Shown piece by piece: positions 13,931 through 18,742 of a DNA stretch of 33,072 nt. The stretch is from Pseudomonadota bacterium (GTDB lineage: Bacteria > Myxococcota_A > UBA796 > CAJQPC01): NCBI GenBank assembly GCA_041160755.1, contig JBEAVX010000691.1, positions 1 through 33,072 of the forward strand. Reading direction: 5' to 3'. Each line of letters starts with the position of its first letter. The first letter of the stretch is position 1. The notes beneath the pieces were generated by a model. The model had not been told where the DNA came from. It saw only the letters and a list, made by a program, of their open reading frames with translations, and did no database searches. The position numbers and the translations under genes are program-made.

Positions 13931-16900
13931 TTACATCCCCAGCTTCTCTTCGGGGGCGACCTCGGCCTCGGACTGATCCCGCGTCATCATGCCGAGCTTC
14001 TGGTACGCCGCGAAGCCTGTGCCCGCGGGGATCAGACGGCCCATGGTGACGTTCTCTTTGAGGCCGCGGAGCGTGTCAATACGCCCGTGGATAGAGGCCT
14101 CAGTGAGCACGCGGGTGGTCTCCTGGAAGGAGGCCGCCGAGAGGAAAGAGTCGGTCGAGAGCGAAGCCTTCGTGATGCCGAGGAGCAGAGGATCGGCGAC
14201 GGCCGGGCGACCACCCGCGGCGACGATGCTGCGGTTGAACTCCTCGAACCGATGCTTCTCGACCTGCTCATCGACGAGGAAGTCCGTGTCGCCGACCGCG
14301 CGGATCTTCACCCGGCGCAGCATCTGGCGGACGATCACCTCGATGTGCTTGTCGTTGATCTTCACGCCTTGGAGCCGGTAGACCTCCTGCACCTCATCGA
14401 CCAGGTAGCGGGCCAGGGCGGCCTCACCCTTGATCTTGAGGATGTCGTGGGGGTTCGCGGCGCCGTCCATGAGCGCGTCACCCGCGCGGACGAAGTCACC
14501 CTCGTTCACGGTGATGTTCTTGCCCTTGGCGATCAGGTACTCCGTCGCGCTGCCGTCCTCGGCGGTGACCACGATGCGGCGCTTGCCCTTCGTGTCCTTG
14601 CCGAAGGAGACCACGCCGTCGGTCTCGGAGATGACGGCGACTTCCTTGGGCTTGCGGGCCTCGAAGAGCTCAGCCACACGCGGCAGACCGCCGGTGATGT
14701 CCTTGGTCTTCGTGGTCTCGCGGGGGATCTTGGCGACGACGTCGCCGGGCAAGATGTCGTCGCCTTCGTTCACCATGATGTTGGCGCCGACGGGGAGGAA
14801 GAACCGGGCCTTCGCTTTGCGGGACTCGGCGTCGCGCAGCACGATGCGGGGCTTGATGTCGCCGTCCTTGAACTCCAGCACGACCTTGCGGCTGCGGCCG
14901 GTGATCTGCTCCAGCTTCTCCTCAAGGGACTTGCCGGGGATGAGATCCTCGTACTTCGCCGCGCCGGAGTCATTCGCGAGGATCGGCGTGGTGAATGGAT
15001 CCCACTCGGCGATGCGCGTCTTGGCGGTGACCTTCTCGCCGTCCTTGACGAGGATGAAGGCGCCGTAGGGGATCGCGTAGCGCTCACGCTCGCGGCCCTT
15101 GTCGTCGGCCACGGAGATCTCGCCGTTGCGGCTCATCGCCACGGCGTTGTTCTCGCGGTTGCGGACGATGGAGAGCGCGTCGGAGTACCGGATGGTGCCC
15201 GAGGTCTTGAGCTCGATGGAGGCCTGGGTGACCTTCGCCGAGGCGGCGCCACCGATGTGGAAGGTGCGCATGGTGAGCTGCGTGCCGGGCTCGCCGATGG
15301 ACTGGGCGGCGATGACGCCGATGGCCTCACCGACGTTGACCAGCTCGCCGCGCGCCAGGTCGCGGCCGTAACACATGCTGCACACGCCCCAGCGCATCTC
15401 GCAGGTGAGCACGGAGCGGATCTTGATGCGCTCCACGCCCGCGGCGACGATCTTCTCCACGGCCTTCTCGTCGAGCATCCCGTTGCGCGGGACGAGCACC
15501 TCATCCGAGTAGGGGTCGAGCACGTCCGCGGCCGCCACACGACCGAGGACACGCTCACCGAGATGCTCGATGATCTCGCCGCCCTCGATGAGGGAGGTGA
15601 CGTCCATGCCCTCTTGGGTGCCGCAGTCCCGAGCCGTCATGATGGTGTCCTGGACAACATCGACGAGGCGGCGGGTGAGGTAGCCGGAGTTCGCGGTCTT
15701 CAACGCCGTGTCCGCGAGACCCTTTCGGGCGCCGTGGGTGGAGATGAAGTACTGGAGCACCGAGAGGCCCTCGCGGAAGTTCGCGGTGATGGGCGTCTCG
15801 ATGATCTCGCCGGAGGGGCGGGCCATGAGGCCACGCATACCGGCGAGCTGGCGGACCTGGGTCGGTGAACCACGGGCGCCGGAGTCGACCATCATGAAGA
15901 CGGAGTTGAAGGACGTGTGGTCCCGCAGCTCGCCGTCCTCGCCGCGCAGCTTCTGCACGCCGATCTCGCGCAGCAGCTCCTTGGAGATCTCGTCGGTGAC
16001 CTTCGACCAGATATCGACGACCTTGTTGTACTTCTCGCCGACGGTGATGAGGCCGTCGTTGTACTGGGTCTCGATGTCCGCCACCTCGTGACGGGCGTTG
16101 TCGAGGATCTCGTCCTTGCGGGACGGGATGAGCATGTCGTCAATGGCGATGGAGATGCCCGCGCGAGCGGCCATCGTGAACCCGAGGCTCATCAGCGCGT
16201 CGGCGAGGAGCACCGTGGCCTTGGGGCCGCAGGTGCGGTAGCAGCGGTCGATCAGCTCACCGAGCGCCTTCTTGTTCATCGTCCGGTTGACGGCGGAGAA
16301 CGGCAGGGGCTTGGGGATGATGTCGAAGAAGAGCACGCGGCCGACGGTGGTGTCCACCACCTCGTAGCGGGACTCTTGACCGTCGTTCTCGTTGTCGAGG
16401 GTGTGCAGGGGGATCTGCCCCTCGAAGCCGAAGAAGCCGCCGGGCGCCACGACCAGGACGAGATCGTCGCCGAACTTCTCACGCGACCACTTCACGGCCT
16501 CACGCAGCAGCGACATGCGGTGGGAGGTGTTGAAGCGGGCGTCCACGAGGAACCCGCCGCTCGCCGTGGTGGCGCAGCGGGGGTTCATCACGACGACGAC
16601 GCGGTTGTTGTCGCGCAGCTTGGGCAGGCGGTAGGCCCAGGCGACGGCGTCGCCGAGGTCAGCCGACTCACGCTCGTCATCGCTGAAGGACTGGCTGCCG
16701 GTGTTCACGGCGAGCTGGCCGATGAGGCCGTCTACGCCAGCCCCGTGGTGCTGGGCGGTGAAGCCGAACACGCCGCGGCCGCGGGCCTGCTCAACGACCG
16801 CCGAGGCGCTCGTCTCGCGGTGGTGCAGGTCGATGAACGCGACCGCGCCGGGGTGCTGGCTGGGGTCGATGGGCGTGCCGTCCAAGGAGACGACGACGTC

Positions 16901-18742
16901 ACCGCCCATGCTCGGCAGCTCGTAGACGAGCTGGCCGGCCGCGCGCATCCGAAGCCCGCCGCGGTTGATGTACCAGGCCTCGCGCTGGTTGGCGCCGGGG
17001 CCGGCGTCCACGCCGATGATGAGGTGGGCGTCGGCGAGCTCAGGGATGAAGTCGGTGATGCGGTCTTCAAGGGCCAACGCGGGCAGACGCACGCGGACCT
17101 TGGCCTGAAGGGCGACCTCACCGGCGTCGTAGGCGATGGCGACCTCGCTCGGGTCGGAGAAGGCGCGGCCGTGGCCCTTCGCCTGGTCCCGCTCGCGGGT
17201 CATGTAGTAGCAGCCCAGGACGATGTCCTGAGAGGGCTGGATGATCGGCTTGCCGTTCGCGGGGCTCAGGATGTTGTTGGTGGACATCATGAGCACGCGG
17301 GCCTCGATCTGGGCCTCGATGCTGAGCGGGAGGTGAACGGCCATCTGGTCACCGTCGAAGTCGGCGTTGAACGCCGTACAGACGAGCGGGTGCAGACGGA
17401 TGGCCTTGCCCTCGATGAGCACGGGCTCGAAGGCCTGGATGCCGAGGCGGTGCAGGGTCGGCGCGCGGTTGAGCATCACGGGATGCTCCTGGATGACCTC
17501 CTCCAGGATGTCCCAGACCTCCTCGGGCTCCTTCTCCACCATCTTCTTGGCGGCCTTGATGGTCGTGACGAAGCCACGCTCCTCAAGCTTGTTGTAGATG
17601 AAGGGCTTGAAGAGCTCCAACGCCATCTTCTTGGGGAGACCGCACTGGTGCAGGCGCAGCTCGGGGCCGACGACGATGACCGAGCGGCCGGAGTAGTCGA
17701 CGCGCTTCCCGAGGAGGTTCTGCCGGAAGCGACCCTGCTTGCCCTTGAGCATGTCCGAGAGCGAGCGCAGGGGGCGCTTGTTGGGGCCGGTGAAGATCTT
17801 GCCGCGACGACCATTGTCGAAGAGCGCGTCCACGGCCTCCTGCAACATCCGCTTCTCGTTGCGGATGATGATCTCCGGCGCGTTGAGATCCTGGAGCCGC
17901 TTGAGGCGGTTGTTCCGGTTGATCACGCGGCGGTAGAGATCGTTGAGGTCCGAGGTCGCGAAGCGGCCGCCGTCCAAGGGCACCAGGGGGCGGAGGTCGG
18001 GCGGGATGACCGGGATCACCTCCAGCATCATCCACTCGGGGCGGTTGCCCGAGTCGCGCAGGCCCTCGACGATCTTGAGGCGCTTGGCGAACTTACGACG
18101 CTGGGGCTCAGACGTCGTCTCCTTCATCTCCGTGCGCAGCTTGTTGGCCATCGCCACGATGTCCAGCCGCGCGAGCATGTCGCGGATGACCTCGCCGCCC
18201 ATGCCGACCTCGAAGGTGCCGTACCCGAAGGTCTGCACAGCCTCCTGGTAGTCCTCCTCGGAGAGGATCTCACCCTCTTTGAGGGTGGTCTCCATGGGGT
18301 TGGTGACGATGTAGCTCTCGCAGTACAGCACCTTCTCAAGGTCCTTCAGGGACACGTCGAGGAGGTTCGCGATGCGGCTGGGGAGGCTCTTGAGGAACCA
18401 GATGTGCGCGACGGGGGTGGCGAGGTCGATGTGGCCCAGGCGCTCGCGGCGGACCTTGGACTGGATGACCTCAACGCCGCACTTCTCGCAGGTGATCCCG
18501 CGGAACTTCATGCGCTTGTACTTGCCGCACAAGCACTCGTAGTCCTTGACGGGCCCGAAGATCTTCGCGCAGAACAGACCATCCTTCTCGGGCTTGAAGG
18601 TCCGGTAGTTGATGGTCTCAGGCTTCTTCACTTCACCGTGGGACCAGCTCCGGATCTTCTCCGGCGAGGCCAGGCTGATGCGCACGGCCACATAGTTGAG
18701 CGGGTTCTTCGGCTTGTCGAAGAGGTTGTAAATGTCCTTCAC
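13931..18742 (-). CDS. rpoC: DNA-directed RNA polymerase subunit beta' (1603 aa, with a large lineage-specific insertion)
   Basis: N-terminal Zn finger [23 protein letters not shown], catalytic [12 protein letters not shown], bridge helix/trigger loop [26 protein letters not shown] and [17 protein letters not shown], plus an SI3-like trigger-loop insert. GTG start with AGGAG. Extra segment at about aa 553-796. Confidence 0.98.

Follow-up and report, generated by a model that had tools for sequence, protein, structure and literature searches.

The rpoC gene and its extra segment

The window analysed here, the whole stretch of 33,072 nucleotides from contig JBEAVX010000691.1 (assembly GCA_041160755.1), carries the gene rpoC for the beta' subunit of RNA polymerase (13931..18742; all coordinates are window positions on the minus strand unless another strand is given). 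The open reading frame (ORF) was translated into 1603 amino acids (aa), Pfam Rpb1 domains 1-5 were recognised and beta' chains of the PDB were matched with E=0. Inside this subunit lies an insert of 239 aa (aa 554-792, 16367..17083), delimited by PDB beta' alignments, AlphaFold2 (AF2) and homologous inserts, which consists of one predicted alpha/beta domain and a C-terminal linker. In phmmer comparisons with the PDB, aa 1-554 matched residues 1-553 and aa 787-1582 matched residues 560-1368 of Pseudomonas aeruginosa beta'; aa 791-1598 matched residues 565-1383 of Escherichia coli beta'. Because the alignment splits in two, about 232 RpoC residues are without counterpart in the beta' chains of the PDB. 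The N-terminal anchor LQAKVRVRL (aa 545-553, 17084..17110) forms the first strand of the bD4 hairpin in the pore-1 domain, and the alignment to P. aeruginosa beta' extends to 553. The C-terminal anchor (11 aa, aa 793-803, 16334..16366) forms the strand by which the hairpin returns; its Y793 is the counterpart of E. coli beta' residue 567, and E. coli 569 was aligned with query position 16. The insert thus replaces roughly residues 553-565 of E. coli beta', about 13 residues between the two strands. The catalytic motif NADFDGD (aa 459-465, 17348..17368) lies 95 residues ahead of the insert and served as point of reference.

An earlier reading of the letters without database searches, here called the sequence-only reading, had proposed an extra RpoC segment between conserved anchors. 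The segment is real and in frame, with edges within 3 nt of the earlier coordinates. Its large size was upheld, and the values were refined to 239 aa (aa 554-792) from about 243 and, for the gap in E. coli, to about 13 residues from about 18. The insert is continuous and without stops or frameshifts. Host codon bias was kept as claimed, with a GC content at third codon positions (GC3) of 0.933 for the insert compared to 0.932 for the remaining rpoC. The segment had been called rich in Gly, Ala and Val; with 27 G, 26 A and 23 V in the 243 residues of aa 554-796 an enrichment is present, but a mild one. Lineage-specific insertion of beta' is meant here in the sense reportedly used by Lane and Darst in 2010. 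Such an insertion has more than 40-50 extra aa between blocks alignable to all bacterial beta' subunits, compared to 239 aa here, and the restriction to one lineage with absence in other bacteria was found by motif spacing, tree and genome counts (see below). The length of 1603 aa and an SI3-like trigger-loop insert had also been read correctly: a part of this separate SI3-type (SBHM) insertion, the other large insert of this RpoC, was located at 14729..14845 by PF21668 RPOC_hybrid (aa 1300-1338), and the E. coli alignment is unbroken across SI3.

The match to PF04983 (Rpb1 domain 3) is interrupted by the insert, aa 490-552 covering profile positions 1-58 of 162. We take PF04983, following the nomenclature of Cramer et al. 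2001 and the Pfam annotation, to be the pore-1 domain that borders the nucleoside triphosphate (NTP)-entry/backtracking channel. In the scheme of PMC11515920, beta'-bD4 is a bacteria-specific sub-domain (Xanthobacter-type residues 518-571) nested in uD3. Sequence alignment places the insert in the middle of beta'-bD4, at insertion location iii of that scheme. Location iii is listed only for rare variants of the Firmicutes and of the Deinococcus-Thermus/Synergistetes/Thermotogae (DST) group with HABAS, BEAN or sLC domains, and most Gracilicutes have a standard type-4 beta' (PMC11515920). The neighbourhood also includes the site at which the cyanobacterial subunit is divided. In the alignment with cyanobacterial beta'2 (8syi_Z), residue 12 of that chain falls on aa 819 of this RpoC, hence the natural break between beta'1 and beta'2 lies some 15 residues beyond the C-terminal junction of the insert. 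A break in the very loop of the insert was ruled out by this alignment; the loop is an adjacent one. Reports describe the break as a loop on the surface, 'before conserved region E'. From the bD4 site and the adjacent break, the insert would occupy the tip of a hairpin on the surface, where splitting and insertion are both tolerated. Three metagenome-assembled genomes (MAGs) of Polyangia/Myxococcales (L020, L021, L024), which lack the large insert, had a Lys/Glu-rich expansion of 15-37 aa after YYMTRER.FA.GEY, about 35 aa ahead of the site of the insert. Since ordinary members carry this expansion, bD4 is an apparent indel hot spot in Myxococcota.

Conservation and predicted fold of the insert

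The 27 unique inserts share 22 positions conserved to at least 95 %, all located in the blocks 1-62 and 146-225 of the insert. The conserved N-block (residues 1-62, 16898..17083), for which a helix and then five strands are predicted, contains the motifs P..LE.R, PEL.DAHL.VGVD, W.HRG and GGD, and its residues at this conservation level are L5, R8, D18, H20, G24, D26, R41 and G61. The conserved C-block (residues 146-225, 16409..16648; predicted local distance difference test, pLDDT, 85-97) comprises a beta-hairpin with LPK.R..R, a DAR.N..RR loop, a 22-residue helix and a terminal strand; conserved to the same level are L153, P154, R161, D181, R183, R189, L193, R201, L208, V211, G216, F218, G219 and P225. 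The variable middle (residues 63-145, 16649..16897) has nearly no conserved columns and reaches a pLDDT of 80-92 in this sequence. It is the main source of the length range of 194-263 aa; in the most divergent carrier, L016, about 100 extra residues lie instead upstream of the DxH motif. Surface and middle loops of the insert showed rapid divergence and variable length. The acidic, poorly conserved linker back into beta' (residues 226-239, 16367..16408; pLDDT <50 for 231-239) varies in length and is missing in L004. Two glycine-rich motifs were nearly invariant: ELPSMGGD (insert residues 55-62, in the region 16898-16919 of the window), where GGD is followed by a hydrophobic strand in a GD-box-like manner, and P-G/A-G-F-F-G (window 16409-16450).

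Pairwise ratios of nonsynonymous to synonymous substitution rates (dN/dS, NG86) were calculated against close relatives. For the insert, values of 0.16, 0.07 and 0.025 were obtained with three relatives, for the core 0.00-0.08. Separated by parts in the comparison with L002, the N-block had 0.05, the middle 0.32 and the C-block 0.13. The insert is under purifying selection.

AF2, applied to the insert alone with an alignment of 15 sequences, gave a pLDDT of 87 and a predicted template modelling (TM) score (pTM) of 0.87; all five models had a pLDDT of 82-87. The model is one compact alpha/beta domain of about 11 strands with helices at residues 5-12, 95-103 and 186-207, and in its last nine residues the insert is disordered, in agreement with a linker returning to beta'. 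The folded domain expected by the sequence-only reading was thus recovered in the prediction, and the insert is no linker of low complexity. A shallow alignment of 5 sequences yielded a pLDDT of 56, and the Foldseek matches of that model were uninformative. With the pLDDT-87 model, Foldseek found no match in the PDB at E<=1e-3, and all TM scores were <=0.35. The best neighbour was the CN-hydrolase amidase 6ypa_D of Pyrococcus horikoshii (probability 0.99, TM 0.35/0.32, root mean square deviation (rmsd) 4.9 A over 147 columns), followed by vanin-1 (probability 0.57) and metallo-beta-lactamases (E=3.6e-3, TM about 0.22, rmsd 14 A). Foldseek against BFVD returned nothing. An internal duplication was not detected between N-half and C-half of the insert (0.8 %).

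The resemblance to CN-hydrolases was followed to the level of residues and homology was rejected. In hhalign, the probability was 0.9 % against YafV alone and 1.2 % against an alignment of five CN-hydrolases. This alignment pairs the P-G/A-G-F-F-G motif with the CN-hydrolase strand 'v.P.G.i..Y.K.HLf', and the spacing from LP(E/K) matches, but only with the said probability of 1.2 %. PF00795 was not found at E<=1 in 12 members. The Glu-Lys-Cys triad is not conserved: no position is occupied by Cys or Lys in at least 80 % of the inserts, and the position that would pair with the Glu varies among K, E, R and A. The metallo-beta-lactamases were rejected likewise, with no HxHxDH motif, no Pfam match and a TM score of 0.22.

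Searches by sequence gave a family known only from RpoC. The insert had no match in scans against Pfam, NCBIfam, PADLOC and PHROGs, nor did 12 members against Pfam (E<=1); a profile search of PDB sequences up to E<=10 returned 0 matches, and tblastn against plasmids and phages found none. The sequence-only reading had matched the segment to no named beta' insertion, and Pfam, NCBIfam and PDB sequences were all negative. Word-indexed searches of 5.8 billion clusters gave 3-7 matches, exclusively frameshifted or fragmentary RpoC. When 1.84 billion representative proteins were scanned in full with HMMER, 19 matches were obtained, all of them RpoC fragments except for one spurious repeat protein. 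From the family, PDB, phage/plasmid and 1.84-billion-protein searches it follows that the domain is known only inside RpoC. Protein-level searches miss the full-length carriers because public protein sets hold frameshifted fragments. The insert is described nowhere in the searchable literature, the numbered beta'In list of Lane & Darst 2010 lying outside the comparison. The sequence-only reading had considered that the insertion might be a common, already catalogued one of its clade; common within the clade it is (at least 21 species), and a catalogue entry was not found.

Distribution, descent and genomic surroundings

Since the word-indexed searches had provided only pieces of RpoC and never a full-length carrier, the distribution was rebuilt by pattern scans of species-representative genomes and JGI metagenomes. 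The insert was recovered, always at the same site, from several metagenome contigs and from no fewer than 21 among 185,579 species representatives. The 27 unique inserts measure 194-326 aa. In close relatives with independently assembled genomes (L001-L003, L007) the insert was 90-99 % identical, in distant carriers (L004, L005, L008-L018, L100-L115) 32-47 %. The genomes nearest to this one originate from wastewater plants in Denmark and Hong Kong. The spacing from NADFDGD to TTVGR amounts to 338 aa in this RpoC and to 293-425 aa in the carriers, compared to 100-137 aa, mostly 100-117 aa, at more than 60 other loci. These outgroups included MAGs of Polyangia, Myxococcales, Kofleriaceae and Bradymonadales as well as Thermodesulfobacteriota and Proteobacteria; judged by the spacing at these loci, ordinary Polyangia, Myxococcales, Bradymonadales and Proteobacteria do not have the large insert.

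In a neighbour-joining tree of 350 core RpoC positions, from which the insert had been removed, all insert carriers fell into one clade of uncultured Myxococcota. The survey of RpoC across taxa thus supports the lineage specificity that had been proposed. As all carriers form one clade on the insert-free core tree, a single ancient acquisition at the base of this deep clade is the simplest reading. The insert was passed on vertically with rpoC under purifying selection, and by spacing and core tree no loss was seen in the carrier lineages across the deep clade.

The submitters named the carriers Myxococcota or Deltaproteobacteria, and the prefix HK-STAS-MYXO denotes GTDB Myxococcota (PMC8518188). 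Among the carriers were also deposits with implausible names (L100, L112-L115, L108): a Klebsiella pneumoniae MAG LH-05nov19-24, uncultured Enterobacterales/Enterobacteriaceae and the Alphaproteobacteria HK-STAS-MYXO-39. The RpoC cores of these misnamed MAGs cluster within the Myxococcota carrier clade; the names Klebsiella and Enterobacterales are evidently wrong.

The most divergent carrier, L016 (GCA_036146655.1, JAYYJC010000321.1, 3015-8567), encodes RpoC in a single ORF of 1850 aa. A split rpoC was rejected for this genome: the ORF is continuous, the start of the public gene call P0014 (1256 aa) having been placed within the insert. The insert of L016 is 326 aa long, with about 100 extra helical residues ahead of the DxH motif. 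This RpoC has a second insertion of about 110 aa near the C-terminus, between ...DAENNRLAESG and LLLGISKASL. On three JGI contigs of about 22 kb (P0001, P0002, P0006) a near-identical rpoC region is broken by frameshifts into fragments, of which one bears the annotation 'hypothetical protein'. This fragmentation is due to assembly or consensus errors and is not a real split of the gene.

Around rpoC, the gene order on the minus strand is canonical: secY-S10/spc-fusA-rpsG/L-rpoC-rpoB-rplL/J/A/K-nusG-secE-tuf. Immediately upstream of rpoC lies rpoB (18853..23061, 1402 aa). Its product aligns in a single stretch (14-1393 to 8-1353 of a PDB beta subunit), so that a comparable large extra domain is absent by this alignment. 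Downstream of rpsG, fusA (window 10770-12863, minus strand) reached 613 bits, compared to 659 for the EF-G equivalog cutoff of NCBIfam, and its stretch has 69-71 % GC, with about 63 % around; it may encode a divergent EF-G. An ORF on the plus strand that overlaps rpoC (15917-18748) was rejected as an antisense shadow (GC at first codon positions, GC1, 0.94; GC3 0.64). All long plus-strand ORFs in the window regions 1-10700 and 23100-26900 (e.g., 2174-4039 and 23353-24813) are without Pfam match and overlap ribosomal-protein genes of the minus strand; they are high-GC shadow ORFs.

Interpretation and comparison with known insertions

We consider the insert probably a genuine, independently folding accessory domain of about 225 residues with a linker of about 14 residues, which was anciently acquired and acts as a surface or docking module. 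The domain would be displayed at the tip of the bacteria-specific bD4 hairpin within the pore-1 domain (Pfam Rpb1 domain 3). The host loop may be seen as a permissive surface element in the domain lining the NTP-entry (secondary) channel, and most likely the insert is retained as a surface module of the mature enzyme, for which the lack of an intein signature, the purifying selection and the confidently predicted fold are indirect evidence. In this position it could offer a regulator a docking platform specific to the clade, or it could modulate access or conformation at the secondary-channel face. Both roles are suggested by analogy. The Bacillus subtilis insert beta-ln5 has been reported to bind PcrA and is an example of an insert as docking platform (bioRxiv 10.1101/2021.06.06.447298). 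The tail of cyanobacterial SI3 near the rim helix has been reported to exclude Gre and DksA (PMC10895346).

Several points weigh against this interpretation. Between lineages, the insert has an identity of 32-47 % compared to 79-91 % and 49-72 % for its two flanks, and its net charge is not conserved, the isoelectric points (pI) spanning 4.8-9.4. Fast divergence and unconserved charge also fit a tolerated passenger domain. We infer the position of the domain relative to omega, ppGpp site 1 and the rim helices, and its closeness to the secondary channel and omega is taken from the nomenclature of domains and from textbooks because the structure predictions covered the insert alone. Furthermore, the invariant Asp/His/Arg set (D18, H20, D26, R41, R161, D181, R183, R189) could mark a ligand site instead of an interface.

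A neutral passenger would be a domain captured once in a permissive loop and kept since misfolding would harm an essential enzyme, with no function of its own. The fast divergence relative to the flanks makes this plausible, as do the length range of 194-326 aa, the hypervariable middle third with its dN/dS of 0.32 and the spread of pI values; lineage-specific inserts have moreover been characterised as 'largely of unknown function' (bioRxiv 10.1101/2021.06.06.447298). However, ten of the 22 positions conserved to at least 95 % are charged or polar (R8, D18, H20, D26, R41, R161, D181, R183, R189, R201), which exceeds the needs of a hydrophobic core. Carrier lineages never lost the insert across the deep clade, and the conserved blocks have dN/dS values of 0.05-0.13. 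We therefore regard a functionless passenger as unlikely, although it has to be taken into account. The same polar residues would have a different meaning in a ligand-binding or catalytic module, that is a diverged four-layer alpha-beta-beta-alpha hydrolase-like fold in which invariant Asp, His and Arg bind a metal, a nucleotide or an alarmone, placed as sensor or enzyme beside the NTP-entry channel. The top Foldseek neighbours, 6ypa_D, vanin-1 and metallo-beta-lactamases, are all alpha-beta-beta-alpha hydrolases, and D18-x-H20, D26, D181 and six Arg are invariant. But TM scores did not exceed 0.35 throughout, nothing was found at E<=1e-3, the hhalign values stayed at 1.2 % (CN-hydrolase alignment) and 0.9 % (YafV), and neither PF00795 nor lactamase_B was matched at E<=1 in 12 members. 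A Cys or Lys conserved to at least 80 % is lacking, the Glu-paired position in LP-K/E/R/A varies, and HxHxDH is absent. As the catalytic signatures of the nearest structural neighbours are not conserved, the insert would not belong to any known class of enzymes, and a hydrolase-like module of this kind appears improbable. Slightly more improbable is a fold not seen before with a built-in small-molecule or metal site, or an enzymatic activity, at D18-x-H20, D26, D181 and the six Arg; such a domain, placed on pore-1 next to the NTP-entry channel, might sense nucleotides or alarmones in cis and not via DksA or Gre.

The evidence contradicts the three remaining explanations. Inteins typically reside in highly conserved housekeeping genes as large in-frame insertions, and a relic of an intein or homing endonuclease or a recent horizontal insertion had to be considered. 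The junctions, P554 and R792-Y793 (the insert ends with ...ESR in front of Y), lack the Cys/Ser/Thr nucleophile and the His-Asn pair, and inserts of relatives start with Gln or Ser; in this respect the sequence-only reading, which had noted no intein boundary residues, was correct. Pfam matches to Hint, intein or LAGLIDADG were not obtained, the GC3 equals that of the host gene, junction repeats are absent apart from short chance matches and a phage or plasmid homologue was not found. The insert also appears to track the core clades in its identity and length patterns, a qualitative observation. Tracking of core clades together with divergence down to 32 % identity speaks for ancient vertical inheritance, and a mobile remnant is very improbable. 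Fragmented and frameshifted public copies (P0001, P0002, P0006) could suggest an artefact of assembly, frameshift or annotation in 16364-17086, a concern raised together with the original proposal. Here, as in more than 20 independent assemblies from different assemblers, the frame runs through without interruption. The GC content at the third position is 0.93 in frame, and the signature of purifying selection and the confident fold likewise disagree with an artefact, which is practically negligible as an explanation. A BBM2/BEAN module (CATH 3.90.105.10) has about 85-100 aa in two antiparallel bracket-like elements, as in i4 and i9 of E. coli beta. An RNA polymerase beta chain or BEAN protein was absent from the top 50 Foldseek PDB matches of the insert, that search being the basis for setting this fold aside. 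Tandem SBHM/HABAS repeats as in SI3 would be the other ordinary choice; the GGD-hydrophobic strand loosely resembles a GD-box, and most surveyed lineage-specific beta' inserts are HABAS (PMC11515920). PF21668 or a hybrid domain was not matched on the insert, though the same scan finds the SI3 of this protein, and hhalign of the insert against that SI3 gave 0.16 %. The top 50 Foldseek matches included neither an RNA polymerase chain nor a lipoyl/biotinyl domain. The model is a single alpha/beta domain of 225 residues with a 22-residue helix and not a series of tandem beta units of 65-90 residues. SBHM and BBM2 had been named at the outset as folds for comparison; the insert matched neither type, and membership in an ordinary insert family of RNA polymerase is hardly credible.

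An accessory surface domain, the interpretation that we prefer, is of interest because differences among bacterial RNA polymerases lie mainly in lineage-specific inserts, the majority of which, as far as surveyed, are SBHM/HABAS or BBM2/BEAN repeats. Lineage-specific inserts of beta' as such are known. This insert stands apart by its fold, which is neither SBHM nor BBM2 and has no confident structural neighbour, by its site in the bD4 hairpin and by its host clade of uncultured Myxococcota. A 225-residue alpha/beta domain without detectable relative outside RpoC is present at the rarely used pore-1 site, and it extends by one family the small set of domains that have been met solely as insertions. 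For the deep uncultured Myxococcota lineage it is a clean molecular synapomorphy that could help to recognise mislabelled genomes. If the domain indeed contacts the secondary-channel face, it could alter the access of Gre/DksA-type factors or of nucleotides to the active site.

Among known systems, the rare insertions at bD4 location iii (PMC11515920) come closest in site: here as there, a whole domain is accommodated in a surface loop of the same host element. Those insertions are of the HABAS, BEAN or sLC type and occur in Firmicutes and in Deinococcus-Thermus/Synergistetes/Thermotogae, whereas the present carriers are Gracilicutes (Myxococcota) and the fold of the insert agreed with no such type in the present tests. 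The SI3 of E. coli (beta'In6) and beta'In2 of Thermus are likewise large, in frame, lineage-restricted and dispensable-looking, and both sit on the enzyme surface. They differ by their sites in the trigger loop or clamp instead of the pore-1 hairpin, by tandem beta-rich SBHM units instead of one alpha/beta domain and by a phylum-wide distribution compared to about 21 known species. The cyanobacterial and plastid split into beta'1 (gamma) and beta'2 occurs in the same neighbourhood, and both cases demonstrate tolerance of drastic topological change; the split is a break of the chain and not a domain insertion, and the two loops are adjacent but not identical. With the CN-hydrolase (nitrilase) fold of 6ypa, the insert shares a mixed alpha/beta architecture and a 'hydrophobic strand-P-G-G' element, a resemblance and not a membership. 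The beta-ln5 of B. subtilis differs in its location on the beta lobe, in its fold and in having a known partner. It is also lineage-specific and poorly conserved, and as a proposed platform for the Tudor domain of PcrA it provides the functional analogy that we favour for the insert in the Myxococcota beta' subunit.

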